DNA of 64,000 bases from an uncultured Pseudomonadota bacterium (lineage in GTDB: Bacteria; Oederibacteriota; Muellerivitia; Muellerivitales; Muellerivitaceae), in assembly GCA_963836235.1 (NCBI GenBank), contig CAWIIP010000002.1, positions 1,312,001 through 1,376,000 on the forward strand. The letters run 5' to 3'. Of this stretch, positions 43,085 to 63,080 are shown piece after piece. Both the position numbers and the translations under genes were made by a program. Each line of letters begins with the position of its first letter. Position 1 is the first letter of the stretch. The notes below the pieces were generated by a model. It saw nothing but the letters and a program-made list of their open reading frames with translations, was not told the origin of the DNA and did not search any database.

Positions 43085-43125
43085 GGAGAGATGGCAGAGT
43101 GGTCGAATGCGTCTGACTCGAAATC
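43085..43125 (+). repeat. attL: 5' half of tRNA-Ser (truncated host copy)
   Basis: 40/41 nt identical to 62991-63031; identity ends just after the anticodon loop. Confidence 0.92.
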
Positions 43126-43321
43126 TTTCCAGATGATTTTTTTGTTTTTGAAGTCGTAAGTCGTAAAAATTTATTGTCCCCATCAGCATTAAATTGGCCT
43201 TTGCCTGTAATGGTTTTAACACCAAAACGGGCCGAGGCCTTTTTTTTGAATTACCGGACAATACCGGTTAGTGGCCGTCAAAACCGGTAAAAACCGAATT
43301 CGAATGACACGTATATGACAC
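43120..43321 (+). repeat. Island left-end arm, copy 1
   Basis: Homologous to 56587-56788; 85 bp identical (43173-43257 = 56640-56724). Confidence 0.92.
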
Positions 43322-43436
43322 CAAATGACATAGGAAGGGTCACCAGATTTTGAGCCAAAGAAAGCCTAATGATCTTTTTAATTATTATCTGACTCTAAAA
43401 TAAGCCATTTCCTCCTTCGCGAAATTTTGACAAAGC

Positions 43437-43450
43437 GTGAGATAAGTCAC
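43437..43450. promoter_or_regulatory. Crp/Fnr (HcpR-like) box
   Basis: GTGA-GATAAG-TCAC upstream of 43505 gene. Confidence 0.7.
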
Positions 43451-43504
43451 ATCGATAAATCGCTAATTGAAGCATTCTAAAACTACAAAAGTTTAGGAGT
43501 TTAA

Positions 43505-44575
43505 ATGGGTCAAATTTCCAAGCGAATTCCCCTCGCCGTCTCGGCCTTAATAACCCTTTTTCTCGCCGTTTGGGGCGGGCTGTTGCGGTTGCAATGGCAT
43601 CTCCCAATACCCGAGGCCAATTGGATCTCTTTTCATGGCCCCTTAATGGTGAGCGGATTCTTTGGGACGATCATCGGACTTGCGCGGGCAAGCGTTCTTA
43701 AATCCAAAGTTGGTCTGTTAGTCCCTCTGGCGACCGCTCTAGGTGCCTGGACCCTTCTTTTAGGTGGCCCGGAAAACTGGGGAGCCCTTTTGTTCCTCGC
43801 CGCCAGCCTGGGTTATCTTTTGGTTTCTATCGCTTTTTTCTGGAAACAACCGGCTTATGCCGCCGCCTTGGCGCTAGCGGGTGGATGTGGATGGGCTTGG
43901 GCCAATTTCTTTTGGTGGCATGGGGAACCTATTCCCCACGTGATGAACGGTTGGCAAATTCTATTTGTCCTGACCATCGCTTCTGAAAGATTGGAAGCCG
44001 TCCATTGGAAATCAACGATTGGTCGGACACTGGCCCTTATGACGGCCTCTGGTTTACTGATGGCCGGTGTGGGCTTGCAACCCTTTCAGCCACCCCTAGG
44101 GGTCCGAATGGTTGCGGCGGGGTTCCTTCTTCTGGCCACGTGTTTATTGGTTTTCGACAGAGGGTGGAACAGCGAAAAAACAGAAGGTTGGAAAGGCTTC
44201 ACCAAGGCTTGCCTGATCTCGGCCTATGCCTGGCTTCTTGTAGGTGGATTAGTCGGGTTTATAACCGCCCCGGTGGATTCGGGTTTCGCTTACGACGCCT
44301 TCCTGCATTGCATTTTCCTGGGGTTGGTATTTTCCATGGTCTTCAGCCATGCCCCTCTTCTATTGCCCCGTGTCTTGAGAACACCAGTTCCTTTCCATTC
44401 GTTCTTTTATGCCCACTGGCTACTTTTACAGATTTCCCTCGTGGCAAGGGTAGGTGGTGACGCATTTGAATCCACCCCTTGGCGCCGATGGGGTGCGTTG
44501 CTAAACGCCTTGGCTCTTTTACTGTTTATCCTCAATACCGCGATTGCCGTGTACCGGGGCAAACGTTCAAATTAA
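43505..44575 (+). CDS. NnrS-like multi-TM protein of NO-stress clusters
   Basis: HGPLMVSGFFGTII, LTIASERLE, YDAFLH, MVFSHAP; context. Confidence 0.65.
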   Translation: MGQISKRIPLAVSALITLFLAVWGGLLRLQWHLPIPEANWISFHGPLMVSGFFGTIIGLARASVLKSKVGLLVPLATALGAWTLLLGGPENWGALLFLAASLGYLLVSIAFFWKQPAYAAALALAGGCGWAWANFFWWHGEPIPHVMNGWQILFVLTIASERLEAVHWKSTIGRTLALMTASGLLMAGVGLQPFQPPLGVRMVAAGFLLLATCLLVFDRGWNSEKTEGWKGFTKACLISAYAWLLVGGLVGFITAPVDSGFAYDAFLHCIFLGLVFSMVFSHAPLLLPRVLRTPVPFHSFFYAHWLLLQISLVARVGGDAFESTPWRRWGALLNALALLLFILNTAIAVYRGKRSN

Positions 44576-44922
44576 GCCTGATTTGACTTTAAATATTTTT
44601 GAAGGACCACAGCGTTGTTGTGATCGGCATCCTTGGCGGCAAATAAAAGTGTCAATGTGCCTCTCTTGGCAGCCTCGAAAAGGGGTTTGAGCGCCTCCCG
44701 CTGGGCAGCCAGTTCCCGGCCATACCTTTTTTGGAATTCCTTCCATTTCTTAGGATCATGATTGAACCATTTCCTTAACCTTGCGCTAGGAGTGACGTCC
44801 CTGGTCCAACCCGACAATCCAGCTTTTTTCTTTTTTATTCCCCTGGGCCAAAGCCGGTCCACTAAATAGCGTTTTCCATCTTTGATTTGAGGCTTCAAAT
44901 AAATCCGTTTGATTTGAATCAT
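44572..44922 (-). CDS. DUF488/YeaO family protein
   Basis: IQIKRIY, LVDRLWPRG, LRKWFNHDP, HNNAVVL. Confidence 0.9.
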   Translation of the reverse strand: MIQIKRIYLKPQIKDGKRYLVDRLWPRGIKKKKAGLSGWTRDVTPSARLRKWFNHDPKKWKEFQKRYGRELAAQREALKPLFEAAKRGTLTLLFAAKDADHNNAVVLQKYLKSNQA

Positions 44923-44987
44923 GTCCGAATTCCCTACTTGATTGATTCCATTCAAAATTCGTCCAGCGGGTAACTTTATTTGGCCCG

Positions 44988-45653
44988 TCACGCTTTGGCC
45001 GGTATAGATGCTTTAGGGGATTGCTGGATACCATAAAGATGACCGCAAGAAGGGCACCGGATGGCCTTCATTTCGGAAGGAATATGCAGACTGTAAACTC
45101 CGGAGCAGGCCGGACAGACGGCCTTTAATCCAATAGGCCTGGCTGTTGAATCGTCGAAAAAAGCGAACCCCGTGGAGGGATCAAAGAATGATCCTTCTTC
45201 TGTCGGAGTCAGCGGTTTTAATAAGGCCTCGGGCAAGACGGGCCCAGCAGCTTTTGGTTTTTCGTAAGTTTCGGCAAACTTCGTGACGTAATCGCACCAG
45301 GCATTGGTAATGTAATAAGCTACATAATGCCCAAGGTTGGGGATCAAAACAGGGACGCGTTTCAAATCCTCGCAATGCTCAAAAACCCAAATATCTTTCT
45401 CTTTAGCAAGGGTGGTAGCCCAAGGGAACCAGTTCTTGGCTTGCGAGGAAACTTCCTCATCCTTACTGAGGACGAAAAACAAGGCGTCCGACTCTAGAAT
45501 TTCCCTTTGGATTCTATCCTTTGAGGCAGGCCCTCCCACGAGGTCCTTATAGGTTACCCAAACCGTTTTAACCGCCACCGCACGGAATACCTTGGAGAAA
45601 AACACTTCAAAGCGCTCATCCATAGAACCATGAACAATGAGTATTTGACGCAT
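44988..45653 (-). CDS. TIR-like domain plus C-terminal zinc ribbon
   Basis: ILIVH..IQREILESDALFFVLS alpha/beta pattern; CPAC..CPSC. Confidence 0.5.
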   Translation of the reverse strand: MRQILIVHGSMDERFEVFFSKVFRAVAVKTVWVTYKDLVGGPASKDRIQREILESDALFFVLSKDEEVSSQAKNWFPWATTLAKEKDIWVFEHCEDLKRVPVLIPNLGHYVAYYITNAWCDYVTKFAETYEKPKAAGPVLPEALLKPLTPTEEGSFFDPSTGFAFFDDSTARPIGLKAVCPACSGVYSLHIPSEMKAIRCPSCGHLYGIQQSPKASIPAKA

Positions 45654-45677
45654 GACCCTACCTTTCTTGGTTAAGGC

Positions 45678-46025
45678 TTAAGACCGAATCATTGTGAGAA
45701 TCATTTTGAACCGCTTCAACGCCTTAAGGGCGTGCGGCTGTTTCGCTGGCATCAGAATTATCTCGCCGGAATGCAGGTGATAAGGCTTGCCCGCAATGCT
45801 TATTTCCACCTCGCCTTCCAATGCCTGTACGAGCGCGTCGAATGGGGCTGTGTGTTCACTCAACCCTTGTCCCTCATCGAATGCAAAAATCGTTACGGTT
45901 CCAGTCGTTTTCTTGACAATTTCCCGGCTGACAACGGAACCTTCCTGGTAGTTCACTAACTCGGCGGCCTTCGCGACTTCAGCGCCTGGAAGGCCTTTTG
46001 TTTTAGGCGGGATTTCCGGTTGCAT
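45678..46025 (-). CDS. Cupin domain protein
   Basis: FAFDEGQGLSEHTAPFDA, MPAKQPHAL. Confidence 0.9.
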   Translation of the reverse strand: MQPEIPPKTKGLPGAEVAKAAELVNYQEGSVVSREIVKKTTGTVTIFAFDEGQGLSEHTAPFDALVQALEGEVEISIAGKPYHLHSGEIILMPAKQPHALKALKRFKMILTMIRS

Positions 46026-46035
46026 GATGCCTTCC

Positions 46036-46494
46036 TTAATTTTTAAACGCGGGAATTTTGGGCCAATCATGGATGTTGAATTGAATTTCAGTCTCCACCC
46101 ACTCTTTTTCTGCCTGTGTGAATTGGTCCTCGATTTCCTTGAACAACTTATCTTCCTCGAAATAAATGTGTTGGATGAGTTTTTCAGCGAACAATTTTAA
46201 CGATTTCAAATTTCTCGTTTTTAACAGTTGGTTTAACTCCTTATGCTCCCGCCGGGACCGGGCCAATAATGGATCATCAGAACCCTTATGGAAAGCGAGT
46301 TGATCTAACATCTTCTCTTCCACACCGATATGCGCTTCCAAGTCCGACTTGAAGAATCTTTCAGCTTTTCGCTTCAATTCCTCCAGTTCCTTCTTCGAAG
46401 GTTTTTTTTCCAACATCCTTTGAAGCGTTTTGGCCGTCATCAATCCGAAATGGTGGGCATGGGTTATAGGCCACAGGAATTTTTCACGTTTCAT
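46036..46494 (-). CDS. Hemerythrin/HHE domain protein
   Basis: HH, HIGVEE, EH, HIYFEE. Confidence 0.8.
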   Translation of the reverse strand: MKREKFLWPITHAHHFGLMTAKTLQRMLEKKPSKKELEELKRKAERFFKSDLEAHIGVEEKMLDQLAFHKGSDDPLLARSRREHKELNQLLKTRNLKSLKLFAEKLIQHIYFEEDKLFKEIEDQFTQAEKEWVETEIQFNIHDWPKIPAFKN

Positions 46495-46544
46495 GTCTTC
46501 CTCCTTGATTTAGTTTTTCAGTATTCTCGTTTATCTTCAAAATT

Positions 46545-47291
46545 TCAATCCAACCAGCCGTTATGAATGGACTTCTGGAAAAGAACATTGTTTTCCTTGT
46601 GGACGTGTTGATGCAAATCGTCCTCCAAATCCTTCAATCCTAAGTAAAGTGCTTTGTAAGACCGGCAGGCGTCGGCAGGAGCGGTGAGATCGTTTGTGAT
46701 CTTATGGATCTCAATCCATTCCTCTCCCGTCATGCCGTGTTCCCACATCAGGATTTTTAAAGGATGATTCTCCAAAGGCCCCCCTTCGAAAGGATTGGGA
46801 ATACCTTCTTTTTTGCCGTTTGCCTCTTCCAGGGCCTTCAGATAGGGGAAAACTTGCTCTTCTTCCTTCGCCATGTGTCCTTCCATCTCCTCGGACATTT
46901 CATTGATGATCTCCTCCAATCGGCAAAGTTCGGAATGGTTGCCGCCATGAACTCCCTCGACCTTTTGCGAAAGAGCCTTTAGGCGGCTTAGTTGGGTTCG
47001 TGTAAAAGCATGATGCTTTCCCAGGATATGGTCGATCAATTCGGCCATAGTTTGGGTCTTCCAATCGGGTAATACCTCCTCCTGATTCGATTCGGCCTCA
47101 AGCCTCTCTAAATCCGAAACAACCTTCTCTACCGGAACGCCCACTAACGAACAGGCCTCCCTCAATGACCGGGCTCCCCCACAGCAGTAATCGATTTTCA
47201 AACCCTCAAAAAGTGGTATAGTCCTCGGAAATTCGGAAGCGATATCCCCCACCGTTTTGTCGGCCTCGAATTTTTTGGTTTCTGTTTTCAT
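46545..47291 (-). CDS. ric: Iron-sulfur cluster repair di-iron protein (Ric/YtfE/ScdA)
   Basis: IDYCCGG, HH, HMAKEE, EH, HVHKENN. Confidence 0.93.
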   Translation of the reverse strand: MKTETKKFEADKTVGDIASEFPRTIPLFEGLKIDYCCGGARSLREACSLVGVPVEKVVSDLERLEAESNQEEVLPDWKTQTMAELIDHILGKHHAFTRTQLSRLKALSQKVEGVHGGNHSELCRLEEIINEMSEEMEGHMAKEEEQVFPYLKALEEANGKKEGIPNPFEGGPLENHPLKILMWEHGMTGEEWIEIHKITNDLTAPADACRSYKALYLGLKDLEDDLHQHVHKENNVLFQKSIHNGWLD

Positions 47292-47351
47292 TTTGAATCT
47301 CCTTGTGTCCTTCTTACGGTTTCAATTTAAGCCCCAAGGGTTCTTGACGCC

Positions 47352-47365
47352 GTGACTCAAGTCAC
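47352..47365. promoter_or_regulatory. Crp/Fnr (HcpR-like) box
   Basis: GTGA-CTCAAG-TCAC between divergent ric and regulator. Confidence 0.75.
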
Positions 47366-47415
47366 TAAAAGACCCTATTCTTGAGGAAACCCTTCTCCAA
47401 CGATATGATGGGCAA

Positions 47416-48084
47416 ATGGATAAGATTGCTTCCTTGAAAAAAACGGAAATGTTTGGCTCTCTCGGGCCGGATGAACTGGGCGTTATTGCTGGTGTTTGTG
47501 TGGAAAAGAGGCTGAAAAAAGGGGAGGTTCTCTTCATATCCGGGGATAAGGCCAGAGGCCTTTATGTCATCGCCAAGGGTTCCTTAAGGGCCTATCGGGA
47601 TAACACTGAAGGGCGGGAGCAAATCATCCACTTGGAAAAGGCCGGAACCACCATCGCCGAAGTACCTACCTTTGATGATGAACCTTATCCCTCTTCAGTC
47701 CGTGCCGAGGAAGAAAGCGAAGTGCTTTTCATCTCCAGGGAGGATGTCAAAAGGCTTTGCTTGAGACACCCCGCTATCGCCCTTTCCGCCTTGAAGCTGA
47801 TGGCTTCCCGTCTTCGTAAAACAGCGGCCCTTGTTGAATCCCTTTCCCTAAAGGAAGTCGATCAACGTTTAGCAGCCTTTTTGTTGCAGGAATTCAGGGA
47901 TAAAAAATTAAAAAAACTAAAATTGCCGCCCATTTCCGTCATTGCCGCGCGGCTGGGGTCGGTTCGGGAAGTCGTTTCAAGGGCTTTAGCCAAGCTTGAA
48001 AAGGGAGGGTTCATTTCGATTGATAAACAACGAAACGCAAGCCTAACCAATGTTAAAGGTTTGGAAGTTTTTTTAAAAAAATAA
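47416..48084 (+). CDS. Crp/Fnr family regulator (DNR/HcpR-like, no FNR Cys cluster)
   Basis: cNMP domain plus HTH IAARLGSVREVVSR. Confidence 0.92.
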   Translation: MDKIASLKKTEMFGSLGPDELGVIAGVCVEKRLKKGEVLFISGDKARGLYVIAKGSLRAYRDNTEGREQIIHLEKAGTTIAEVPTFDDEPYPSSVRAEEESEVLFISREDVKRLCLRHPAIALSALKLMASRLRKTAALVESLSLKEVDQRLAAFLLQEFRDKKLKKLKLPPISVIAARLGSVREVVSRALAKLEKGGFISIDKQRNASLTNVKGLEVFLKK

Positions 48085-48101
48085 AATGGGAAGACTCCAA
48101 T

Positions 48102-48587
48102 TTATTTATCGGTTGGTTTTTCGGTCAAGCGGTGGGGGACATGAGTCTCGGCAGGTTTGTAAGGAAGTAACTTTTTCGTCTCACGGTCTTTTTCTTCCTC
48201 AGTCAGGGTTTTTTCCACTCTGGGGAAAAAAACATCCTCCTCAAAACGGATATGGGCGGTAAGAGTATCGGCAAAGAGTTGAAGATCTTTTTGGGTCACT
48301 GACGTTGATAAGGCTCGGATGGTTTGATGGTCTTGCAATATTTTTTTAATGTCCGAATCATCCGATCCTACATGATTTTCAAAAACCTTTAGGAGTTCTT
48401 CCTCTTCCCCGCGAAAATGCGGTTCTAAATCTCTAGCAAAAAGGCCCGAGATTTCTTGGCTCAAGACAACTAGGGTATTTTTTTCACCTTCGTTCAGCTT
48501 GGAAAGGCGGTCTCGGATATTCCGGGCCGCCACCAGCGCCCCATGGTGTCCTTGGGTCAACGGCCAAAGAAATTTTTCACGTTTCAA
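48102..48587 (-). CDS. Hemerythrin/HHE domain protein
   Basis: HH, HFRGEE, DH, HIRFEE. Confidence 0.82.
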   Translation of the reverse strand: MKREKFLWPLTQGHHGALVAARNIRDRLSKLNEGEKNTLVVLSQEISGLFARDLEPHFRGEEEELLKVFENHVGSDDSDIKKILQDHQTIRALSTSVTQKDLQLFADTLTAHIRFEEDVFFPRVEKTLTEEEKDRETKKLLPYKPAETHVPHRLTEKPTDK

Positions 48588-48621
48588 GATTCAGGACCCT
48601 TTTTCCCCTAACGTTTCTTCG

Positions 48622-50883
48622 TCATTCCGGATTGGCGTCCGGTTTTCTCAAATAAAACATCGATCTAACCGTGAAGTAGAGAAGAGGCAAAACTCCGCCA
48701 ACGACGAAAGTTAGGTCGCCTGCCATCCTGGCCCAAGTAAGTTTTTGGACGATGGGTTGGCTCCAGAAATCCACGCTTCGGGCAAACCAGTAGCCTCGCG
48801 TGTAACTCTGGACCATCTCCAAAATCCCCACCGGGAAAATATCCAGTAATAGCATCATCATCAGGCCGATTTGCAGGGACCAAAAGGAGATTTTTAATAA
48901 ACGGTTGGACCAGTGCTCAGGCTTGACCAGGAACCGCAGGACGAACACTAAGGCAGCGATGGCCAGGTTGCCGTAAACCCCCATCAAGGCCGCATGGGCG
49001 TGATTTGGCGTTAAGTAGGTGGCGTGTTCGTAGTAGCTGACAATAGGCAGGTTGATAAGGAAACCAAATATTCCGGCTCCTACGAAGTTCCAAAAGCCGA
49101 CCGCAATCAGGAACATAATCGCCCAGTAATGGGCGAAAAATCCGTCCGATTCCTTCGTGCCTGCCTCCCCTCTCCTGAGCTTGGCGAAGTCATAAGCCTC
49201 AAGGGTCAAGAGCAATAAAGGAACCACTTCCATGGCCGAGAAGAAGGCTCCCAAGGCCAGATTGATGGCTGGTTGGGCAGTCCAGTAATAATGATGGCCC
49301 GTACCGATGAGTCCCGATCCCAAATAAAGGATTATATCCAAGTAAACCACCCGGACAGCGGTTTTGGTTGTCACTAAACCAAGGATAACGAAGAAGTACG
49401 CCACTACGATGGTAGTGAATAGTTCAAAGAAATTTTCCACCCACAAATGAACCACCCACCAACGCCAAAAATCGGCGATAGCGAAATTAGTTCTCGGGGT
49501 GTAAAGCAAACCCGCCGAGAACATCAAGGGAATAGCCAGGATGCCGTAAACGAGAAGGTAAGGCAAACTGCCCCAATCCTGCCCCTTAAGCCTTCCCCAA
49601 ACCGTTCGAAGCACCAACACTGCCCAAATACCCATGCCAGCGGTCAAAAGGATTTGCCAGAAGCGACCCAGTTCCAAATATTCCCAACCTTGATGCCCGA
49701 ACCAGAACCAATACTGTCCAAGCTTGGCCTTGATGCCCAAATATTCACCAACGATGGAACCAACCGCCACCAATACCACCGCGCCAAAGAGGACGTTCAC
49801 CCAGAAGGCTTGGTATTTAGGTTCTCTTTGGCCAATGAAGGGAGCGATGAATAATCCAGCCGCCAGCCAAGCAGTGGCGATCCAAAATATGGAAAGCTGT
49901 AAATGCCAGGTGCGGGTGATAGTGGTGGGCAGGATATCCCGGATATCTAATCCATAAAATCCCGTGGCTTCTACGAAATAGTGAGCCGTGAACACACCCA
50001 TGAGGGTTTGGAAAGAAAAAAGCAACGCCACAATGAGGAAATATTTATAAGTCGCCACCTGGCTGGGAGTGATTTTGAAATCTTTTAACGGAATGCTTTT
50101 CTTTATCGCGGGCTCATCCCCACCCCACCCTAAGTAATCGAAACGGCCAAAAAACAACAGGACCAAAGCGCATCCCCCCAACAAAGAGATCAATGAAAGG
50201 ACACTCCAAAGGAATACGGCTCTGGTAGGCCGGTTCCCGACAGCATCCTCAGGCGGCCAATTGTTGGTGTAACTGTAATTTTTTCCGGGTCTTTGGGTCG
50301 ATGCCGTCCAAGCGGTCCAGGCGAAGAAATCGGTGAGTTTTTGGACTTCATCCGTGGTTTTGATGTAATTTTTTGGAAGGCTGTGGTCTTCCCCACTGTT
50401 CATGAAAACATCAACGTAATGGGTAACCAGGGGAGGCCATGCTTGAGCCTGTTCTTGAGTAAGGGTTAAAGTCTGTGTGTTTTCATCGTATCGGTTGGTT
50501 TTCGCGTCCGAAATCACCATCTGACCGATTTTCGCTTTTTCACTTTCCGAAAGATTTCCATAAGGCTGTTTGAATTCCTCTTCGGCCTTCTCGTCGCGCT
50601 GAATCCAGGCCGAGCGGTGCATGTAGTCGTCCGTAAAATCGGGCCCACGATAGGCACCATGACCAAAGATAGAACCGTAATCCATAAGGCCGTATTGCTG
50701 GAAAACGGCTTGGCCTGTCAAGATATCCTCTCCGGTGAAAAGGACTTTTCCAGAAGCCTCAACCACCTTGGCGGGTATAGGAGGAGCGTTTTCGTAAACT
50801 TTTTTCCCCATGAACATCAAAACTGAAAATCCAATAATGACAACCAATACCGCCGCATGCCGCCAAGCTTTGGAAATTTCCAC
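48622..50883 (-). CDS. norB: Quinol-dependent nitric oxide reductase (qNor)
   Basis: GHGAYRGPD, RTWHLQ, HLWVE, GTGHHYYW, EVVP, HAHAALMGVYG. Confidence 0.93.
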   Translation of the reverse strand: MEISKAWRHAAVLVVIIGFSVLMFMGKKVYENAPPIPAKVVEASGKVLFTGEDILTGQAVFQQYGLMDYGSIFGHGAYRGPDFTDDYMHRSAWIQRDEKAEEEFKQPYGNLSESEKAKIGQMVISDAKTNRYDENTQTLTLTQEQAQAWPPLVTHYVDVFMNSGEDHSLPKNYIKTTDEVQKLTDFFAWTAWTASTQRPGKNYSYTNNWPPEDAVGNRPTRAVFLWSVLSLISLLGGCALVLLFFGRFDYLGWGGDEPAIKKSIPLKDFKITPSQVATYKYFLIVALLFSFQTLMGVFTAHYFVEATGFYGLDIRDILPTTITRTWHLQLSIFWIATAWLAAGLFIAPFIGQREPKYQAFWVNVLFGAVVLVAVGSIVGEYLGIKAKLGQYWFWFGHQGWEYLELGRFWQILLTAGMGIWAVLVLRTVWGRLKGQDWGSLPYLLVYGILAIPLMFSAGLLYTPRTNFAIADFWRWWVVHLWVENFFELFTTIVVAYFFVILGLVTTKTAVRVVYLDIILYLGSGLIGTGHHYYWTAQPAINLALGAFFSAMEVVPLLLLTLEAYDFAKLRRGEAGTKESDGFFAHYWAIMFLIAVGFWNFVGAGIFGFLINLPIVSYYEHATYLTPNHAHAALMGVYGNLAIAALVFVLRFLVKPEHWSNRLLKISFWSLQIGLMMMLLLDIFPVGILEMVQSYTRGYWFARSVDFWSQPIVQKLTWARMAGDLTFVVGGVLPLLYFTVRSMFYLRKPDANPE

Positions 50884-50947
50884 CAGCCGCCTCCCGCCAA
50901 GATATTAAAATTCGTATTCTTTTTAAGACATAATTCTCAACAATACT

Positions 50948-50961
50948 GTGACTTAAGTCAC
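50948..50961. promoter_or_regulatory. Crp/Fnr (HcpR-like) box
   Basis: Perfect palindrome GTGACTTAAGTCAC upstream of qNor. Confidence 0.78.
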
Positions 50962-51125
50962 CTTTAAATCCTATTGAAACCAATAATTAACTCAAAGGCT
51001 TTCAAAAATCCGCCGGGTTGATAAAGTTATGACGCCATACCTAGAGACGATCCAAGGTAATTAAGCCAAACGGAGTTTGTGAGGGCCCCTTTTAGACCCA
51101 ATCGGCTGATTTCTAGGTATAATTT

Positions 51126-51158
51126 ATCGGCAGTTTAACGGCAGTTCATCGGCGGAGG
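51126..51158 (+). repeat. Three 11-bp direct repeats (AWCGGC core) downstream of TATAAT
   Basis: ATCGGCAGTTT AACGGCAGTTC ATCGGCGGAGG; TATAAT at 51118-51123. Confidence 0.75.
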
Positions 51159-51163
51159 AAATT

Positions 51164-53653: not shown

Positions 53654-53678
53654 ACCATTAAACCGTTTACACCTCTAA

Positions 53679-54887: not shown

Positions 54888-54929
54888 AATTAGGTAATAT
54901 CGAATTAATTAGGTAATGAATTAGGTAAT
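54888..54929 (+). repeat. Three AATTAGGTAAT direct repeats upstream of second fic
   Basis: Copies at 54888, 54907, 54919. Confidence 0.8.
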
Positions 54930-54985
54930 GTGTTAAACTTTGCCCCTGGCCATCCCGGCTATAACCAAAACTTTTAGGAAACCCC

Positions 54986-56035: not shown

Positions 56036-56050
56036 GGGGTTAAAGAACCC

Positions 56051-56431
56051 ATGCACATCAACCGAAACGCGGTGGTCCTTAAGGCCAAACAACCTTTTGT
56101 GGATTGGATCAACACGACCCCCAGGGAACCAGGGGATGAATTGCCACGCTTTACCCTGGAACAGTTCAACCAGGAATGTATGGTCCTGTTGATCCCTGAA
56201 TTCGATTCCATCCAGGAAGCCAGGGAGCAGGTTCGCCAGTTGAAGATGGACTTGTTTGAAGAGTCGTTGGAAGACTGGTATACGGACGAGGAAGATTGGC
56301 CCCAAAACCGCACCGAGAAAATGTTCGATGAGTGGTTTAGCCTGGAAATCCATTCCGAAGTGATTGATACCGTGGATGGACCCATTGAGAAAGAAGACTT
56401 AGGGAATGAATCGTTTCCGGCCTTGGAATAA
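56051..56431 (+). CDS. Conserved acidic hypothetical protein
   Basis: INRNAVVLKAKQPFVDWIN..WYTDEEDWPQNRT..FDEWF. Confidence 0.75.
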   Translation: MHINRNAVVLKAKQPFVDWINTTPREPGDELPRFTLEQFNQECMVLLIPEFDSIQEAREQVRQLKMDLFEESLEDWYTDEEDWPQNRTEKMFDEWFSLEIHSEVIDTVDGPIEKEDLGNESFPALE

Positions 56432-56433
56432 AA

Positions 56434-56466
56434 CCCCTTCTCCTGGGGCTTTGCCCCAAACCCCTT
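56434..56466. repeat. Palindromic repeat B
   Basis: CCCCTTC..CTGGGGCTTTGCCCCAARCCCCTT, also at 58662-58694. Confidence 0.8.
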
Positions 56467-56586
56467 AAAACCCCATGGAAGAAATGGCTGAAACTTGTGC
56501 ATTGCTCAATTAAAATTAGATCATTAATTTTCCTCAAGGAGAAAAAATGACCCCTGATCTCTCTTCAATCGTATTACACCCCAAAG

Positions 56587-56788
56587 GAAATCTTTCCGGA
56601 TAGATTTTTTATTTTTGAAAACGTAAGCCGTAAAAATTCATTGTCCCCATCAGCATTAAATTGGCCTTTGCCTGTAATGGTTTTAACACCAAAACGGGCC
56701 GAGGCCTTTTTTTTGAATTACCGGTCAGTACCGGTTAGAAACGGTCAAACCCGGTAAAACCCGACTTCAAATGACACGTATATGACAC
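56587..56788 (+). repeat. Island left-end arm, copy 2 (internal)
   Basis: Begins at GAAATCTTTCC like copy 1 and ends in the TGACAC pair. Confidence 0.92.
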
Positions 56789-56866
56789 GGGGTAAGAAGT
56801 GGACTTGAATGGAAATCCCACCCTCAGAACACATTGCAAGTTCAAAGACTGGTTTAGAAAACAATT

Positions 56867-57274
56867 TTAACGAATTTTAAGTCTGGCTTTATTAGCGAGG
56901 AGATTTGCGAAGTTCACTTGTTGTTGGCGTTCCGTTTTAGGCGGCCAACCGGCAATATTTATATGCCTGTTGGCAGGCGATGGTTCTAAGACTAAATTAG
57001 TGCTGGTTACCTCTTCCGCAGAAATATCGCCTCGGGCTTTTAGATTTGCTTTCTTCTTCGGCGCAAATCTAGCCGTTTGAACAATGTCCCACACTCCAGA
57101 TTCAGATAAACCATCGATACCAAAAACAGACGTTTTGTTATCAATAGGAGAAGGCATAAAAACTGCGTAATTTATTTTTTCCGGGATCTTTGAATAATGT
57201 TCCGTATTGAAAATGTATCTTGTTAGTTCTTTCATCGGCGGAAGGGATGGCGGGGTTTCTTGAGATGCTTCCAT
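56867..57274 (-). CDS. Hypothetical protein, possible ART/RES-like toxin
   Basis: ELTRYI, AVF, TSVF, RHINIAGWP spacing (R-S-H). Confidence 0.55.
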   Translation of the reverse strand: MEASQETPPSLPPMKELTRYIFNTEHYSKIPEKINYAVFMPSPIDNKTSVFGIDGLSESGVWDIVQTARFAPKKKANLKARGDISAEEVTSTNLVLEPSPANRHINIAGWPPKTERQQQVNFANLLANKARLKIR

Positions 57275-57279
57275 TTTGA

Positions 57280-57771
57280 TTAGACTAAACTAAAGTTCTT
57301 ATTTAGTTTTTCTACAATTATTTTCGGTAAACGAGTTAGATCATTGGCGGGCCTTTTACCGAAATTATTTTCTGGCCCATCAATTTCCGAAAAGATTAGA
57401 AAATCATTATCAAAAGCAAGAACTAATCTTTTATCGCCCTTTACCCATTCAAAACCTATATTGCCTGAAGGTTCTGGCACTACTCGGGGAATAATAATAT
57501 TGGCATTAAGTAAGGATGCCAATTTTTCCGCACGTTCCTTTTCCAGTTTTGTTATAGGTATTGCGCCATAGCCATCCCAATCTTTTTCATTACAGTTTTC
57601 CATTATTTCCATTAGTTTTCCATCAATGATTTCTTTTGTTAATCCAAAAACTGATTTCGATTCTTCTTCTTGTTTAACTTCGTCGTAAGAAGAAGAATCA
57701 TTACTTCCATTGGAGAAAGAAAGAAACTGGGGGTAAGTATGAAAAGTTCTAATTGTGTTGGTATTGCTCAT
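57280..57771 (-). CDS. Hypothetical protein with low-complexity N-terminus and WDGYGA motif
   Basis: DWDGYGAIPI, PEPSGNIGFEW; ATGA overlap with upstream gene. Confidence 0.7.
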   Translation of the reverse strand: MSNTNTIRTFHTYPQFLSFSNGSNDSSSYDEVKQEEESKSVFGLTKEIIDGKLMEIMENCNEKDWDGYGAIPITKLEKERAEKLASLLNANIIIPRVVPEPSGNIGFEWVKGDKRLVLAFDNDFLIFSEIDGPENNFGKRPANDLTRLPKIIVEKLNKNFSLV

Positions 57772-58493
57772 TTAAAAAGCTCTCCTGTTTTTTCTGTTAA
57801 AGATTCAAAAAATACATCATCAGCATATTTGTTTAATAAATCCAGGTTATCCCATATTTTATCATCTGACTCTGTAGTTAATTTAAAAACATCTATATCG
57901 AAAATAAAGGTTGATTCGGGTTTTTCATCTGTTTTTGGGATGGTCGATAAACCTAAATTTGCTTTAAACCCATTCCTATCAAGAGAATACCGAAACATAA
58001 AATTTTCAAGAACGCCCAATTTCTCTGAGTTTACTTGAGGTAGGTTCAAAAAATAATCGTTTAGAGTGAAAACGGTTTCGGGGATGGTAATTTTGTTTAT
58101 GTATTTTGTTGCGACACGAAAAATCGAAGGCTTAAATGCTTCAGAATATAGATTCCAAAAAGAGTGTGATTCATTTTTTAAAATATCCCACTTTTCATAA
58201 AAGTTCAACAAACTGAAAGTAAATCCATTAGTGCGATATTGAACAGCCCTACTTTCATCTTTTGATTTTGCAATAAAACCATTTTTAAGTTCAGATGTTT
58301 CTGCTTTTAGTTGTTTGCCTATCGGCCCAAATTTTATTTGATGTTGGCTCAGGATATTCTTTTGAGGAAAATCAGACTTTATTTTATCAAATAAGGATTC
58401 GAGCGCTTCGAAAGTTACGTTGCTATTTTGCGCTATTTGGATATCGACCAGGGATTCTATTATAGGCGGTTTGGAAAAATGCCTGTATTTCAT
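57768..58493 (-). CDS. TIGR04255-like protein
   Basis: PPIIESLVDI, YEKW, RVATKYINKI, FIFDID, FFESLT. Confidence 0.8.
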   Translation of the reverse strand: MKYRHFSKPPIIESLVDIQIAQNSNVTFEALESLFDKIKSDFPQKNILSQHQIKFGPIGKQLKAETSELKNGFIAKSKDESRAVQYRTNGFTFSLLNFYEKWDILKNESHSFWNLYSEAFKPSIFRVATKYINKITIPETVFTLNDYFLNLPQVNSEKLGVLENFMFRYSLDRNGFKANLGLSTIPKTDEKPESTFIFDIDVFKLTTESDDKIWDNLDLLNKYADDVFFESLTEKTGELFK

Positions 58494-58609
58494 GCTAAAG
58501 GTATACCAGAAAAGATGCCTGAAAAAAATGTTCGTTTTTCAATAACCAAACTTAATGGGTGCTTGCCAGAATAAAGGTTTTCAAACTATGACTTTCGTGT
58601 AATCCTTTT

Positions 58610-58694
58610 GGGGGGAAGCCTTCCCCCTGGCCTCGGCTACCTTCGGTGATCCTCGGCACACCCCCTTCGCCTGGGGCTTTGCCCCAAGCCCCTT
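58610..58694. repeat. Composite palindromic repeat A+B
   Basis: Repeat A immediately followed by repeat B. Confidence 0.85.
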
Positions 58695-58842
58695 TCATCA
58701 TCATCTTCTTGAGGTATGCATGGATAGAAGGGCATATACTTTTTAAAAAGTATTTGCGTTTTTATCCGCTATTAAAAATGACTGCCAAAATCAAAAAACA
58801 CAAGCCCCTTAAAAAATAAGGGGTTTGTGAAATTGGACATTT

Positions 58843-59760
58843 ATGAATTGGAAAATCGAGTTTTGTAATGTTTTGTTTTTCCAAAACAAAGACCCTGAAA
58901 ATTTCGACAAAGCCAATCGATTAAAGTTTTCTAAACTTCCAAAATCTCTTTTTAGGTTCAGAGCTTGGAAAGACTACAGCTTAAAAGAAATTAGCGAAAA
59001 CAAAATTTGGCTTTCGAACCCAAGAACATTTAACGATCCTTATGATTGCTCTGTCTCAGCAGATTATAAAAAGGTCGTCCTTTCGCTGTTTCGAAAATTG
59101 CCACAAACAACAAATATTTCGGATAAAACTTGGAAGGAAGTAGAGGAGAGCGATGACCCAGTCCTGTATCTTTCCCGTTACCTTGCTCAGAGGGTTGTCC
59201 CCCCCGATTTGCAATATGTTGAAAACGCAAGACTGTTGAATTTAGAAGTAAAATCAGCAGTAGCAAACAAGGAAAAAAGCTGGAACGCGATGAAAGACGA
59301 AACAAAAGTTGCGTGCTTTAGCCAGCGGTGGGATTCATTACCAATGTGGGCGCATTACGCCGATCAACACCAGGGGTTTTGTATTGAATATGATCTTTCC
59401 AATGAATCCGAAGGACGAACTGCTCCCCTTTTTCCAGTCATTTACTCTAAAGCACTAGTGCCCTTGGACATCACCAACGAATTAATGAATCTGCCAGGCA
59501 ATAGTGGCCATTTGGCAATCAAAGCCGCCATTTACAAAAATATGGATTGGAGTTATGAACGCGAGTGGCGGCTTGTTTTTTACACAGGAGATGATCAGAA
59601 AATCGAAATAAAAGGATATCCCATCAAGGCAATTTACTTGGGCACCAAAATCAACGATGAACACAAGAGGCAGTTAATAGAGCTGTCCAAAAAGGTTAAA
59701 TTTAAGATTTTTCAAATGAGGGTTTCGGCCAATAAATTCAAAAAAGAAAAAATCGACTGA
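58843..59760 (+). CDS. DUF2971 domain protein
   Basis: LFRFR, FNDPYD, CFS, MWAHYA.QHQGFCIEY, WSYEREWR. Confidence 0.88.
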   Translation: MNWKIEFCNVLFFQNKDPENFDKANRLKFSKLPKSLFRFRAWKDYSLKEISENKIWLSNPRTFNDPYDCSVSADYKKVVLSLFRKLPQTTNISDKTWKEVEESDDPVLYLSRYLAQRVVPPDLQYVENARLLNLEVKSAVANKEKSWNAMKDETKVACFSQRWDSLPMWAHYADQHQGFCIEYDLSNESEGRTAPLFPVIYSKALVPLDITNELMNLPGNSGHLAIKAAIYKNMDWSYEREWRLVFYTGDDQKIEIKGYPIKAIYLGTKINDEHKRQLIELSKKVKFKIFQMRVSANKFKKEKID

Positions 59761-59764
59761 AGAT

Positions 59765-60352
59765 TTGAAAGCCATTAGCGAGTTCTACAATCTGGCCTAT
59801 CCCAAGTTCATCGACTTCATCAACAAGTGCCGGGAAGCCCAGGTGAACCTCTTTTTGGCCCACCAGTCCATGGGGGATTTGAGGGGCGTTTCGGAGGAAT
59901 TTCTGGAACAGGTGATGAACACTGCCAGCAACAAGATCATTTTGCGGGTGAACGACCCGGACACGGCGGAGGGCTTCGCCCGGCAATTCGGAACCGAACG
60001 CGACCAGGACTACCGGGTGGAGAGTTTTGGGAAGGATGGACAGATGATGGGTTATTCCAAGCCCCCGGTTGAGAAGTTCCGTTTCCACCCCAACCGCATC
60101 AAGGAATTGAAGGTCGGCCAAGCCATCGTCAAGGTCGTGGGTGAATCGGGGGTCAAGGTCTTCCAAACTGCCTTGCGGCCGGCGGATAACCCATGGGATG
60201 GCTTTAACACCCAAAACGGCGTGGCCCACCGGACCCGCCGTGATGCAATCAATGAAAGCTCCCTCCCCGAGCTGGTAGGCGAAAACAATGGCGGCCCGGA
60301 GCCAGGCCCCAAAAACCCTGGAAGCCCCATGGGGGATGAAGATGCGGCCTGA
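59765..60352 (+). pseudogene. C-terminal remnant of type IV coupling protein (TraD/VirD4)
   Basis: (D)EF at the Walker B position, LAHQSMGDL, NKIILRVNDPDTA; N-terminal part absent. Confidence 0.8.
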
Positions 60353-61205
60353 GAGCGCCCTCGAACCGAGGGACCTGGACATCCTGGCTTACATCCATTC
60401 CAACAAATTCATCACCACCCGGCTCTTTCACCGGAAGTTCCATCCGGCCCAATGCTATACGACCGCCTGTGTCCACCTTAGGAGCCTGGTCAGCCGGGGA
60501 TGGCTCCTCAAAACCCAAAACCTCCCGAACGACGACACCTTTCATTACCTGTCCCGCCCCGCCCTGAAGAACCTTTCGGATCTTGCCCGAATCCTTACCT
60601 CCAAGGAAATCCGCTCCCCCCATATCAATCCCTTTGAGAGGGAGCACGACAAGCGGGTTATTCAAATGCGCGTCCATTGGGAGATGGACAAGGCTTTGGA
60701 GGGGTTGGTTTGGCTGTCCGACTACGAGATGCGGTGCGGCCTCAAGATGTCCTGGAAGAAGGCCTTGGAGGAAGGGCGAGGGTGGGACTTGGCCGGGACC
60801 AAGCTTCAAAGGCTGAACCGCCGGACCCCGGACGGGTACTTTGAGGCCGCCTTGGAAGGCAGGCCCCAAGCCTTCGTCTTGGAGTACGAGCACTCCCCCT
60901 ACAACCGGGACCAGATGACGGCTTTGGTCCTGAACCTCAACAAGGACTTCCCGGAGGCCTGCCGGTTGATCGTCAGCCAAAACAAGACCCAGGCCGTAAG
61001 GCTGGTGCAGGGGCTTTCCACCTTCCTGAAACACGACCTCCGGAACCGGAACCTTTGGGCTTTTTCCTTTTTCGAAAAGGCGGCGAACCTGCCCTTTAGG
61101 CGGGTGCCTTGGGTGAACCTGGAATGGGAATACCTTCCCTTCGTGAAGGACCCCATCCTGAAGACGGCCCCAGCGGAGGAAAAGACAAAGGAGGTGGCGT
61201 CATGA
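60336..61205 (+). CDS. Replication-relaxation family protein (wHTH plus PD-(D/E)xK)
   Basis: RDLDIL wHTH, EHD, TPDGYF..LEYE; follows T4CP remnant. Confidence 0.72.
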   Translation: MKMRPESALEPRDLDILAYIHSNKFITTRLFHRKFHPAQCYTTACVHLRSLVSRGWLLKTQNLPNDDTFHYLSRPALKNLSDLARILTSKEIRSPHINPFEREHDKRVIQMRVHWEMDKALEGLVWLSDYEMRCGLKMSWKKALEEGRGWDLAGTKLQRLNRRTPDGYFEAALEGRPQAFVLEYEHSPYNRDQMTALVLNLNKDFPEACRLIVSQNKTQAVRLVQGLSTFLKHDLRNRNLWAFSFFEKAANLPFRRVPWVNLEWEYLPFVKDPILKTAPAEEKTKEVAS

Positions 61206-61587
61206 ACTGTAAGCGGACCCATAAACAGCTTATGGCGAAAATCCACGGAAACGCCCGCGAAAACCAGGGGTTCGCCTGTCTTGCGACGCCAGACCCCACT
61301 CCCCCTGGATCAAGTTCAGATCGCAGGAAAGCGGTAGTGGGGTCTGGCCTCTTAGACAGACTCACCCCTAAAAGCGCGGGCGCGAAGGATGAAGAAGAAT
61401 TAAAGAATTTAAGGATTAAGACGAAAGACAAAGTCAAAGGCAACGGCAAAACCAACACCGTGGAAAACCCCCCGAACAACCTGTTGGTAATGAAACAGGT
61501 TATGGACGCGGGGTTTTCCACACCTTTCCCCGAAGGTGGCCCCTTTGGGGCCTGTTATTTTTTAAACCTTATAAGCGGAGGTAAACC

Positions 61588-61845
61588 TTGGTAGATCGTA
61601 GGAAGAATGTAGAACGGCGGAATTATTTAATGTCGGATAAGGATATCGCTGAATGGGCCGGGGTTTCTCCCAATACGGTCCGTTACTGGCGGCAAACGGG
61701 TGTCTTGCCTTTCGAGAAGGTCGGCAAATACCCTAGGGTTTGGTATTCCGTGCTCCTTCAAATTTTTCAAAAAGCCAGTCCACATTTAGCGGGTGCCGCT
61801 GATACAATACCTCTTGCTGATGGGGACATTAGGAGGCAGTCATGA
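61588..61845 (+). CDS. Excisionase-like HTH protein
   Basis: IAEWAGVSPNTVRYWRQTGVLP..KVG; ATGA overlap with integrase. Confidence 0.8.
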   Translation: MVDRRKNVERRNYLMSDKDIAEWAGVSPNTVRYWRQTGVLPFEKVGKYPRVWYSVLLQIFQKASPHLAGAADTIPLADGDIRRQS

Positions 61846-62942
61846 GTAAACCTAATGTCTATGGATTGCCCCAACATCTCCGCAAGGACGACAAGGGGTA
61901 TTTTTTGGATTATTTCATCCGGGAAGGAGGATTGCGGAAGCGCAAAAGGGTCCGGTTGGGCCAGATTCCGGCGGTCCAAGCTAAAAGGGTTCTAGCCCAA
62001 AAAATGCAGGCTATCGTTGAGCAAAAGTATTTTGACAGCGACAAGCCCCAAACCACCTTCCTGGAAGCGGCGGATTCCTTCCTGGCCTATTCCAAGGCCC
62101 GGAAAAAAACTTTTAGGAACGACGCCCAGATAGTGGAAAGGCTGAAAGTCTACTTTGGAACCCGGCCCTTGGAGAGCTTAACGGTGGACTTGGTGGACGC
62201 CTACCTGATTCAAAGGCGGCAACAAGGAAGCCAAGTTAAGCCGGGCAAGACCTTAAAGAACGCGACCCTCAACCGGGACGTTGCCTGCCTGAAAACCATC
62301 GTGAGCCGGGCGGTTTTGAACAGGCAGTTGGACCGTGACCCGATTGTGGGGCTTCAACGCTTTAAGGAACAATCCAGGGACAGGACTTTGACCCCCGAGG
62401 AGTACCAGGCTTTGCTGGCCTGCTGCCCTCCCCACTTGCATAGGATCGTGGAACTGGCTTATTGGACCGCGATGAGGCGGGGGGAAATCTTGGGTTTACG
62501 TTGGGATCAGGTGGATTTTAAAAACGGGGTCATCACCCTGGAAGCCACCGACACCAAAACCCAGGAAAAGCGGGAAATACCGTTGAACGAAAGGCTAGTT
62601 GCCCTATTTCAACGGATACCCAGGACTCTTGGAAGCCCTTACGTGTTTTTCTACCAAGGAAAGCGTGTAAAAGACCCCAGGAATGGTTTTGCGACCGCGT
62701 GCCGGAAAGCGGGAATCGAGAATTTCAGGTTCCACGATCTGAGGCATTGCGCGGTGACGAACTTCCGCAAGGCCGGGGTCAGCGATACGGTAATCATGTC
62801 CATATCGGGCCATAAGACCTACGCGGTCTTTAAGCGTTATGACCGGGTGGATCGTGAGGACCGGAAAGCCGCTTTGAACCGGGTAGCCGGTTTGAATGAC
62901 ACGGTTATGACACGGACCACGAAACAGGAAGTCCAAGCTTAA
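61842..62942 (+). CDS. Tyrosine recombinase / phage-type integrase
   Basis: AMRRGEILGL, K, FHDLRH, SGHKT..Y. Confidence 0.95.
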   Translation: MSKPNVYGLPQHLRKDDKGYFLDYFIREGGLRKRKRVRLGQIPAVQAKRVLAQKMQAIVEQKYFDSDKPQTTFLEAADSFLAYSKARKKTFRNDAQIVERLKVYFGTRPLESLTVDLVDAYLIQRRQQGSQVKPGKTLKNATLNRDVACLKTIVSRAVLNRQLDRDPIVGLQRFKEQSRDRTLTPEEYQALLACCPPHLHRIVELAYWTAMRRGEILGLRWDQVDFKNGVITLEATDTKTQEKREIPLNERLVALFQRIPRTLGSPYVFFYQGKRVKDPRNGFATACRKAGIENFRFHDLRHCAVTNFRKAGVSDTVIMSISGHKTYAVFKRYDRVDREDRKAALNRVAGLNDTVMTRTTKQEVQA

Positions 62943-62990
62943 AGAGAAAAGTTGTAATCCCCTTTTCAACAAAGGGGTTTGGCATGACCC

Positions 62991-63080
62991 GGAGAGGTGG
63001 CAGAGTGGTCGAATGCGTCTGACTCGAAATCAGATTTACGAGCAATCGTAACGGGGGTTCGAATCCCTCTCTCTCCGCCA
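62991..63080 (+). tRNA. tRNA-Ser(CGA)
   Basis: 90-nt cloverleaf, anticodon CGA 63025-63027, long variable arm, TTCGAAT loop, encoded CCA. Confidence 0.96.

Follow-up and report, generated by a model that had tools for sequence, protein, structure and literature searches.

How does a single-copy bacterial tRNA gene come to stand behind an island that repeats its 5′ half, and which of the two copies is the host's own? The locus that raises this question lies in a stretch of 64,000 nt (the window; G000:C2:1312001-1376000) from a 3.97-Mb genome in five contigs (G000) of the candidate phylum FCPU426. The gene for tRNA-Ser(CGA) follows closely upon a tyrosine integrase gene, and a fragment comprising its first 41 nt lies almost 20 kb further upstream. 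We consider it highly probable that positions 43126-63031 form an integrative island that entered tRNA-Ser(CGA) by tyrosine-integrase recombination at the anticodon loop, with the element supplying the leader and nt 1-41 of the gene now in use.

A repeated tRNA 5′ half delimits a 19.9-kb island

ARAGORN detected tRNA-Ser(CGA) at 62991-63080 (+) as the sole tRNA of the window, and the gene is present in a single copy in the genome. A repeat search of the window returned a direct repeat of 46 nt (43080-43125 and 62986-63031) whose copies are 96% identical, with a start-to-start spacing of 19906; read from the sequence, it consists of five leader bases followed by nt 1-41 of tRNA-Ser(CGA). In a whole-genome search, the 5′ part of this tRNA was found in two places only, at 43085-43125 and in the intact gene. 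The identity ends past CTCGAAATC, which comprises the 7-nt anticodon loop (nt 33-39) and two further nucleotides. Together, the two copies enclose a 19.9-kb island, and the nt 1-41 fragment is co-oriented (+) with the intact tRNA, 19,906 nt upstream of it. The integrase gene ends 48 nt ahead of the intact tRNA, and on the left flank 166 nt separate pdxH from the fragment. The features on which the argument rests are the following:

42271-42918, minus strand: pdxH, pyridoxamine 5′-phosphate oxidase, the conserved host gene of the left flank (Pfam PNPOx_N and PNP_phzG_C; divergent neighbour of tRNA-Ser(CGA) in 12 relatives' loci)
43080-43125, plus strand: left attachment-site (att) repeat, core side of attL; five leader bases and the putatively displaced host tRNA nt 1-41, with A7 (repeat search, alignment)
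61842-62942, plus strand: tyrosine integrase, 366 aa, with paired ATGACAC sites in its last codons (62896-62902 and 62907-62913); Pfam Phage_integrase 3.8e-27 and a SAM-like domain, phrog_1 1.8e-67
62986-63031, plus strand: right att repeat; putatively island-borne leader and tRNA nt 1-41, with G7 (repeat search, alignment)
62991-63080, plus strand: working tRNA-Ser(CGA), single copy, with a probable island 5′ part and host 3′ part (G7-T66; ARAGORN, alignment)

These results bear out the claim of an earlier note on this DNA that the repeat corresponds to tRNA nt 1-41 and that the island lies upstream of the intact gene. The single mismatch that it reported, at tRNA position 7 (A 43091 versus G 62997), holds for the tRNA part, but the whole repeat contains a second one at leader position -3 (T 43082 versus C 62988). 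Judged by its sequence, a co-oriented pair of 46 nt with two mismatches and an integrase gene in between is far beyond what chance would produce. The locus also shows the features by which Islander recognizes islands: the candidate is bounded by a complete tRNA gene and a co-oriented end-fragment of it, the 5′ fragment lies upstream of the tRNA gene (tDNA) at a length within 2-200 kb, a gene for a tyrosine integrase (PF00589 3.8e-27, above the cut-off) lies inside, and the site is uninterrupted in relatives (12 of 24 loci).

The working tRNA probably combines island and host sequence

To judge which 5′ half belongs to the host, we compared the locus with related genomes. The gene for tRNA-Ser(CGA) was searched in 40 relatives and found in 24 of them at E <= 1e-20. 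As had been predicted for island-free relatives, half of these loci (12/24) show an empty site, with a full-length, divergent pdxH located 121-392 nt from an uninterrupted tRNA-Ser(CGA). The tRNA alignment further revealed that positions 7 and 66 of the acceptor stem covary, with A7-T66 in 15 and G7-C66 in 8 cases and, thus, a Watson-Crick pair in 23 of 23 relatives (a count that leaves out L025, whose 5′ end is missing). In the window, the 3′ strand TCTCTCC gives the intact gene a G7-T66 pair, as previously noted, and would give the left fragment A7-T66. The combination of G7 with T66 occurs only in the window gene and in none of the 23 relatives, and A7/T66 is the type of the left fragment as well as of both copies in a genome of the same genus (G001).

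Since the 3′ half carries T66, the host allele would be A7/T66. The universal Watson-Crick pairing in the relatives and the restriction of G7-T66 to the window support the view, also taken in the earlier note, that the working tRNA-Ser(CGA) is a chimera of island and host and that the left fragment retains the host's original 5′ end with A7. The observed pairing is what would result if a host gene of the A7/T66 type recombined, to the right of position 7, with an element bearing a G7 5′ half. G is thus found at position 7 in relatives, a result that could have told against the chimera, but since each of these genes pairs it with C66, the outcome favours it.

As an alternative, G7 could have arisen by a point mutation in the working copy after integration rather than by import from a G7-C66 lineage. 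Weighing against import, the tRNA part differs in only one base, A to G is a single transition, and the closest relative of the integrase (94% identical, in genome G074) lies beside a tRNA with A7. However, G7 is a common natural allele (8/23), and the mismatch at position -3 gives the right-hand leader the ..GACCC form seen in many relatives, including G7 lineages, which fits import. Both readings place the right copy on the island's side of the crossover. We therefore regard a later mutation as unlikely and less likely than the arrival of G7 with the island.

A lambda-like integrase with putative arm sites and a predicted core at the anticodon stem-loop

The integrase appears to be lambda-like, as residues 10-333 align with lambda Int (1z1b, 5j0n) at an E-value of about 5e-5. 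Its translation contains R, HxxR, H and Y motifs, which we take to be the catalytic motifs of a tyrosine integrase. The heptamer ATGACAC occurs nine times in the window (2.85 expected), and six of these sites form three plus-strand pairs with 11-nt spacing (43304/43315, 56771/56782 and 62896/62907), located in the distal arm of the island, in an internal copy of this arm and in the final integrase codons, respectively. By analogy, the paired repeats in both arms are likely to be arm-type sites of the integrase. Two further segments of the element are conserved:

43126-43331, plus strand: conserved int-distal arm with a hairpin and U8 run (43196-43247) and an ATGACAC pair (43304-43310, 43315-43321); shared with G001 (93% identity) and found in G012 too
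60288-61845, plus strand: candidate core module of two open reading frames (ORFs), ORF305 and ORF161, and a small HTH_17/MerR-like ORF; DNA conserved in the G001 and G012 islands

The int-distal arm is homologous to the arm behind the restored tRNA in relatives that rebuild the 3′ part of their target (3′-type, as opposed to the 5′-type of this island). The small ORF (61588-61845) gave weak Pfam and PHROG matches to helix-turn-helix (HTH) proteins, below the curated cut-offs, and is a candidate for an excisionase by analogy. ORF305 resembles Atlas clusters in which 12-17% of the members carry Replic_Relax; this lead makes it a possible Replic_Relax-type protein.

The edges of the repeated blocks point to the site of recombination. 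In 5′-type elements, the blocks end 1-6 nt past the anticodon loop, with 2 nt in Ser(CGA) (G000, G001, G012) and 1-6 nt in Ser(TGA) and Arg(TCG); in 3′-type elements, whose integrases are 57-66% identical, they begin at the first base of the loop. Thus, the identity block has an edge at the loop, flanked by the dyad symmetry of the stem, as in the anticodon-loop sublocation (Williams class A). Because this edge lies at the anticodon loop in both layouts, the recombination core is predicted to be the anticodon stem-loop, the classical 'A' sublocation. The other edge of the block coincides with the mature 5′ end in G001 and G012 and lies five bases before it in G000, and because it falls at or near this end, the long identity suggests conservation for tRNA function rather than for recombination.

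The same layout recurs at tRNA-Ser(CGA) in other genomes

The earlier note had asked whether homologous integrases also lie 5′ of tRNAs, and this was indeed observed in G001, G012, G074, G021 and L037 and at two further loci of G000. In G001, a fragment comprising tRNA nt 1-41 comes after pdxH, then an island of 6.6 kb whose integrase is 85.5% identical, and finally the intact tRNA. G012 shows the same order as the window with an 11.3-kb island, and its integrase was recovered in two tblastn pieces. In all three genomes, the tRNA block ends at nt 41 and gives way to the conserved arm of ~200 nt, and the last ~2.5 kb (ORF305, ORF161, the HTH protein and the integrase) are conserved, with differing cargo. 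In G074 (= L041), the integrase that is 94% identical lies directly ahead of tRNA-Ser(CGA), and no 5′ repeat was found inside its 10-kb flank.

The island appears to be a composite of two related elements

The segment 43120-43321 recurs at 56587-56788 with 91% identity, placing a second copy of the distal arm within the island:

56587-56788, plus strand: second int-distal arm copy at the start of part B, with only GAAATC of the core ahead of it (91% identical to 43120-43321)

In addition, the repeat search revealed a decayed copy of the DUF2971 gene of part B in part A, and repeats D1/D3/D5 tie the two parts together. A tblastn search (E up to 10) detected no second integrase in the island. 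We therefore interpret the island as a probable tandem composite of two related elements, part A (43126-56586) and part B (56587-62990). Part A may be a remnant from which the integrase module has been lost together with the 5′-half copy, save for GAAATC. Part B retains the module of possible relaxase-like protein, HTH protein and integrase. The earlier account of the island is to be amended in that it seems to combine two related elements with an integrase in only one of them.

Proposed transcription of the chimeric tRNA

Integration in this layout would separate the working gene from its promoter, and the following elements bear on its transcription:

43017-43046, plus strand: sigma-70-like promoter TTGATA-18-TACAAT upstream of the left fragment (promoter scan, 10/12 matches)
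61779-61808, plus strand: candidate integrase promoter with extended -10 (TG-n-TACAAT; promoter scan)
62959-62977, plus strand: weak hairpin in the integrase-tRNA interval, followed only by UUUGG (-11.1 kcal/mol, z -0.3)

The first of these is presumed to be the native tRNA promoter, now feeding only the orphan fragment; in island-free relatives, an ACAAYTTA box lies 20-30 nt upstream of tRNA-Ser(CGA). Its position to the left of the fragment, together with the lack of a promoter match between the integrase gene and the tRNA, agrees with the proposal that the intact tRNA is cut off from its native promoter. A TGTAAT (62953-62958) resembles a -10 element by eye, with neither a -35 element nor a TG, and its role as a tRNA promoter would be a guess. 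A TG-n-TAnAAT box (TGATACAAT or TGATAAAAT, or a close variant) precedes the integrase ATG in all 14 family members read. Transcription of the chimeric tRNA would start in element DNA, with read-through from the conserved integrase promoter (extended -10) as the likeliest route, and the leader of the transcript would then be trimmed by RNase P. The single-copy tRNA-Ser(TGA) keeps the same layout in five genomes (spacer of 37-39 nt in four of them), which argues that element-supplied upstream DNA may be enough for expression.

At the other end of the island, the hairpin with the U8 run in the distal arm is strong (-28.4 kcal/mol, z -5.4) and would stop transcripts begun at the orphaned host promoter. 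In the 3′-type relative L039, the homologous arm sits behind the 3′ end of the restored tRNA and likely terminates the tRNA transcript. Variants of the hairpin between integrase and tRNA occur in family members of both types. The idea that 5′-type elements lost a terminator after the integrase gene was rejected, since hairpins follow it in some 3′-type and some 5′-type elements alike. As a separate observation, the interval between the TG-n-TAnAAT box and the integrase start codon (window 61797-61841) contains a near-invariant GGGGACATTAGGAGG in 14 elements, a conservation that is unusually strong for a 5′ leader.

Proposed integration and its alternatives

We propose that, in the attachment site of the element, the tRNA leader and nt 1-41 were located at the integrase-proximal side of the crossover. 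Integration would have left the host promoter and the original 5′ half (A7) 19.9 kb upstream, beside pdxH, and joined the 5′ half of the island (G7) to the 3′ half of the host gene, generating the working gene. Were the element to excise via its outer att sites, the host gene would be restored.

Several points weigh against this integration scheme. The roles of the ATGACAC pairs and of the HTH_17/MerR-like protein are assigned by analogy only, the latter from matches below the Pfam cut-offs. The split integrase of G012, which is probably frameshifted, suggests that not all copies are active. The junction between parts A and B lacks the integrase and the 5′ half that a tandem model predicts, such that a deletion has to be assumed. 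The 48 nt that separate the integrase gene from the tRNA gave no sigma-70-like site in the promoter scan, and read-through into the chimeric tRNA is our best guess, an assumption that has to accommodate the small hairpin in between. Finally, public sequencing runs were compared as contigs over window positions 61500-63600 only, where attB/attP joints cannot show, and none of the eight listed contig pieces of the best-matching run (X1; 0.47 of words), whose contigs break at the repeat edges, bridges the junction between integrase and tRNA. In the same comparison, contigs from RNA libraries matched integrase-like sequence at 90-95% identity, and none of them crosses this junction.

The 5′ fragment might instead stem from a local duplication or from an older event that has since decayed; the DNA now enclosed by the copies would then have built up in other ways, and the repeats would not constitute a functional att pair. 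Short fossil 5′ fragments indeed exist upstream of tRNA-Ser(CGA) in L016, L019, L020 and G012, and part A has no integrase. However, a mere leftover would hardly end at exactly nt 41 in three genomes, be followed each time by the same arm with paired ATGACAC sites and have an integrase abutting the other copy in all three, which renders this explanation highly improbable. An assembly artefact, in which a contig of this metagenome-assembled genome (MAG) falsely joins the island to the tRNA locus via the shared 46 nt, might be suspected from the broken short-read contigs of run X1, but its probability is close to nil, because the two-junction layout recurs in G001 and G012, each with its own cargo, and the integrase-to-tRNA junction recurs in G074; moreover, both junctions lie within one 2.05-Mb contig, and in an unrelated run the stretch from integrase to tRNA is covered by a single contig (1321 nt, about 91% identity).

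An integrase family with several layouts on one core

A phylum-wide search (E <= 1e-50; 99 genomes, G000 included) returned homologues of the integrase in 31 genomes, among them 25 of the 30 genomes of the window's own family, often in several copies each. G000 itself holds six copies, in this island and in five more that amount to about 185 kb, and in all six islands the block edges lie at the anticodon loop. Three of them rebuild a 5′ half, at Ser(CGA) (this island), Ser(TGA) and Arg(TCG), such that two serine isoacceptors of this genome are rebuilt in the 5′-type manner. The other islands of G000 are:

G000 C2:1162414-1186838: 5′-type Ser(TGA) island; integrase C2:1185612-1186682, tRNA 1186752-1186838, nt 1-40 repeat 24.3 kb upstream
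G000 C5:236069-273522: 5′-type Arg(TCG) island; integrase C5:272301-273377, nt 1-45 repeat 37.4 kb upstream
G000 C4:131762-245966: two 3′-type islands in a tandem array after tRNA-Thr(TGT), 65.4 and 48.7 kb; integrase adjoins the displaced 3′ fragment
G000 C2:500986-509751: 3′-type island after tRNA-Asp(GTC), 8.7 kb; integrase convergent on the intact gene

Beyond this genome, L037 (by its label an uncultured proteobacterium MAG) contains an 8.7-kb island of the 5′-type at Arg(TCG), whose 43-nt repeat is perfect, and G021 a 5′-type Ser(TGA) island of 25.2 kb. Family members that are 57-66% identical to the integrase (L038 at Asn, L039 at Asp, and those at Thr and Asp in G000) are of the ordinary 3′-restoring type, to which L040 also belongs. 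An element in G073:C10 (L091+L090), with an integrase that is 58% identical, carries a whole tRNA gene rather than half of one: complete and identical copies of tRNA-Phe(GAA) (80 nt) lie at 6089-6168 and 26989-27068, at both ends of 20.9 kb. A side observation concerns one subgroup of the family, L040 and L048 (G041:C4:254250-254289 and 276244-276283), L072 and L077, where the last 40 nt of the target gene resemble a T-arm and acceptor (..CCCCACCA); at the far end, neither ARAGORN nor Rfam found an intact tRNA or tmRNA, and the target of the L040-type elements matched no Rfam family.

In a layout survey of 38 distinct elements, the integrase stop codon lies no more than 70 nt from an intact, co-oriented tRNA in 14 (measured from the broken frame in G012). 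In one further element this distance is 162 nt, in four a convergent tRNA is 16 nt away, and in 19 an intact tRNA is lacking at this place. A 5′ repeat could be confirmed for 7 of the 14 elements with a near co-oriented tRNA; a search within 40 kb gave none for tRNA-Pro (G029) and tRNA-Lys (G033), both co-oriented. In a maximum-likelihood tree of 34 full-length integrases (leaving out the partial or frameshifted L060 and L083-L085 and the duplicates L036, L038 and L041), the 5′-type sequences fall into two groups among 3′-type clades, Arg(TCG)+Ser(CGA) (88/74) and Ser(TGA) (100/100). Its deep nodes are poorly supported, so that the tree gives no number of layout switches and would be compatible with a single origin. 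5′-type, 3′-type, inverted and whole-tRNA layouts coexist among integrases that are 57-71% identical, with three layouts within one genome.

It is tempting to speculate that the FCPU426 integrase family repeatedly moved the tRNA segment of attP across the anticodon-loop core, flipped it or carried a whole tRNA, and that, as a consequence, three tRNAs of G000, one of them its only tRNA-Ser(UGA), are transcribed from element DNA under an integrase promoter. We regard this scenario as possible, albeit rather doubtful. If true, how the host decodes UCN and CGN codons would be tied to the elements' regulatory state, and the orphaned host promoters would make terminated 5′-half RNAs.

Relation to known systems

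An element with a 'reversed target orientation' was reportedly described by Zhao & Williams 2002 (J Bacteriol 184:859), and the pTN3-like integrases considered below are, as a review describes them, said to go back to Cossu et al. 2017 and Krupovic & Bamford 2008. Krupovic et al. (PMC6563490) cite Zhao & Williams 2002 among others on this point. The configuration filter of Islander, as worded in its description, explicitly allows 5′ fragments upstream of the tDNA (PMC4383910), and its Table 1 lists 159 islands with a 5′ fragment versus 3760 with a 3′ fragment, out of 3919 in total (Hudson, Lau & Williams 2015, PMC4383910). According to a passage of a review, pTN3-like integrases of Thermococcales plasmids and proviruses use a tRNA gene's 5′ half as attB, expression of the rebuilt tRNA is attributed to the integrase promoter, and such 5′-half attB sites are 'seldomly encountered in bacteria' (PMC8371274). 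In Klebsiella pneumoniae, islands of integrase clade I.d are described as integrating upstream of arg2, an exception among downstream islands (bioRxiv 10.1101/2020.11.02.365908).

The novelty that the earlier note implied for the reversed layout is therefore overstated, as this layout is uncommon yet documented. As far as these sources describe it, the 5′-fragment class of Islander shares with our island an intact tRNA gene and a co-oriented upstream 5′ end-fragment that bracket a tyrosine-integrase island, with an attP centred on the anticodon. Here, however, the host belongs to FCPU426, the targets are Ser(CGA), Ser(TGA) and Arg(TCG), and paralogues in the same genome use the 3′ layout. The pTN3-like elements, likened by description, share the 5′-half attB and the read-through from the integrase promoter (here proposed), but they are archaeal, whereas the enzyme studied here appears to be lambda-like and bacterial, with a predicted arm-binding N-terminal region. 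The classical 3′-restoring elements of class 'A' (Williams 2002, a class known through citing passages) resemble it in the kind of integrase, the anticodon stem-loop core and the organisation of the arms; they differ in that our tRNA segment lies on the integrase side of the core, such that the 5′ half is replaced and the native promoter disconnected. The Klebsiella clade I.d islands, again likened by description, are also bacterial islands upstream of a tRNA target, but their sublocation is the D-loop rather than the anticodon loop and their host is a different one.

Thus, the island is a well-documented new example of a rare, reversed tRNA integration that is already on record, and the gain is incremental. 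Its value lies in being a clean and internally controlled case, in which the G-U pair in the acceptor stem would betray the foreign 5′ half and relatives show the empty site. Moreover, 5′-half, 3′-half and inverted layouts are used on the same core by integrases that are close paralogues (57-71% identical) and in part share a genome. This diversity bears on the evolution of att sites and on island-finding software that assumes 3′ fragments, and may matter for re-targeting such integrases. It also raises the question of how a single-copy tRNA-Ser(UGA) is expressed after separation from its own promoter.

Cargo of the island

The cargo of the two parts is as follows:

43332-56586: part A cargo with DUF488, a TIR-like/Zn-ribbon protein, a cupin, three hemerythrin-domain proteins including an ScdA-type one, a Crp/Fnr regulator, two SoFic-like Fic proteins and a DUF2971 pseudogene (Pfam, PADLOC)
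48622-50883, minus strand: qNOR-type NorB, part A (Pfam)
56789-60287: part B cargo with three unmatched ORFs, a DUF2971/PDC-S31 gene and a fragment of a TraD/TraG coupling protein (59765-60352)

Part A carries a nitric oxide-stress cargo, composed of the qNOR-type NorB, the ScdA-type and other hemerythrin proteins and the Crp/Fnr regulator. The SoFic-like Fic proteins (51164-52258 and 54986-56035; PADLOC 2.4e-56 and 6.6e-34) and the DUF2971/PDC-S31 gene of part B (58843-59760; PADLOC 1.2e-56) are candidates for anti-phage defence. The three ORFs at 56867-58493 (minus strand; 135, 163 and 241 aa) lie inside a stretch of 35-40% GC and look like foreign cargo; Pfam and PHROG comparisons returned nothing for them, and PADLOC a single weak hit (PDC-M32A, E 2e-4).

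The TraD/TraG fragment (195 aa) is part of a C-terminal domain and, together with the Replic_Relax-like lead, hints at a mobilizable element; no mating-pair genes were seen in the island. With respect to a prophage, a comparison of 14 island ORFs with PHROGs returned no clear virion, packaging or lysis match. Clear matches were limited to the integrase, the HTH protein and the DUF2971-type family, weak ones to a holin (E 2e-4) and to a small terminase (E 4e-5, on the HTH protein), and the remaining island ORFs carry metabolic or defence Pfam domains. Both parts also contain short GC-rich repeats (21-58 nt, 90-95% identical), located at 52280-52300, 53680-53737, 56434-56466 and 58610-58694.

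Further probable traces of insertion around tRNA-Ser(CGA)

Short extra copies of the 5′ end of tRNA-Ser(CGA) lie upstream of the gene in L016 (nt 1-18, 1340-1357), L019 (nt 1-22, 1721-1742) and L020 (nt 1-71, 551-621), and a further one of about nt 1-20 lies upstream of the fragment in G012 (L032). They are probably scars of earlier 5′-type insertions at this tRNA.

On the downstream side of the window tRNA, a gene for a large serine recombinase of 515 aa abuts the tRNA and extends from window position 63036 to 64000 and on to G000:C2:1376583 (L033:37-1584, minus strand). The protein is full-length, with Resolvase, Recombinase and Zn-ribbon domains, and its last 14 codons are the antisense of the 3′ half of tRNA-Ser(CGA). 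In relatives, the tRNA is followed by a gene for an F420-type oxidoreductase or a LysR gene, without a recombinase, except in G020 (L026), which has a 58%-identical C-terminal match in the same place. The recombinase gene looks like a lone insertion of ~1.6 kb at the tRNA's 3′ end. In the island-free loci L015, L016, L008, L013 and L017, a terminator hairpin follows tRNA-Ser(CGA) and, after it, a conserved module of ~190 nt (about 1591-1800, in tRNA orientation). The module matched no Rfam family in the relatives' loci. Its end repeats the last 11-13 nt of the tRNA (..TCTCTCCGCCA), and it may represent either an old 3′-end insertion scar or an undescribed RNA.

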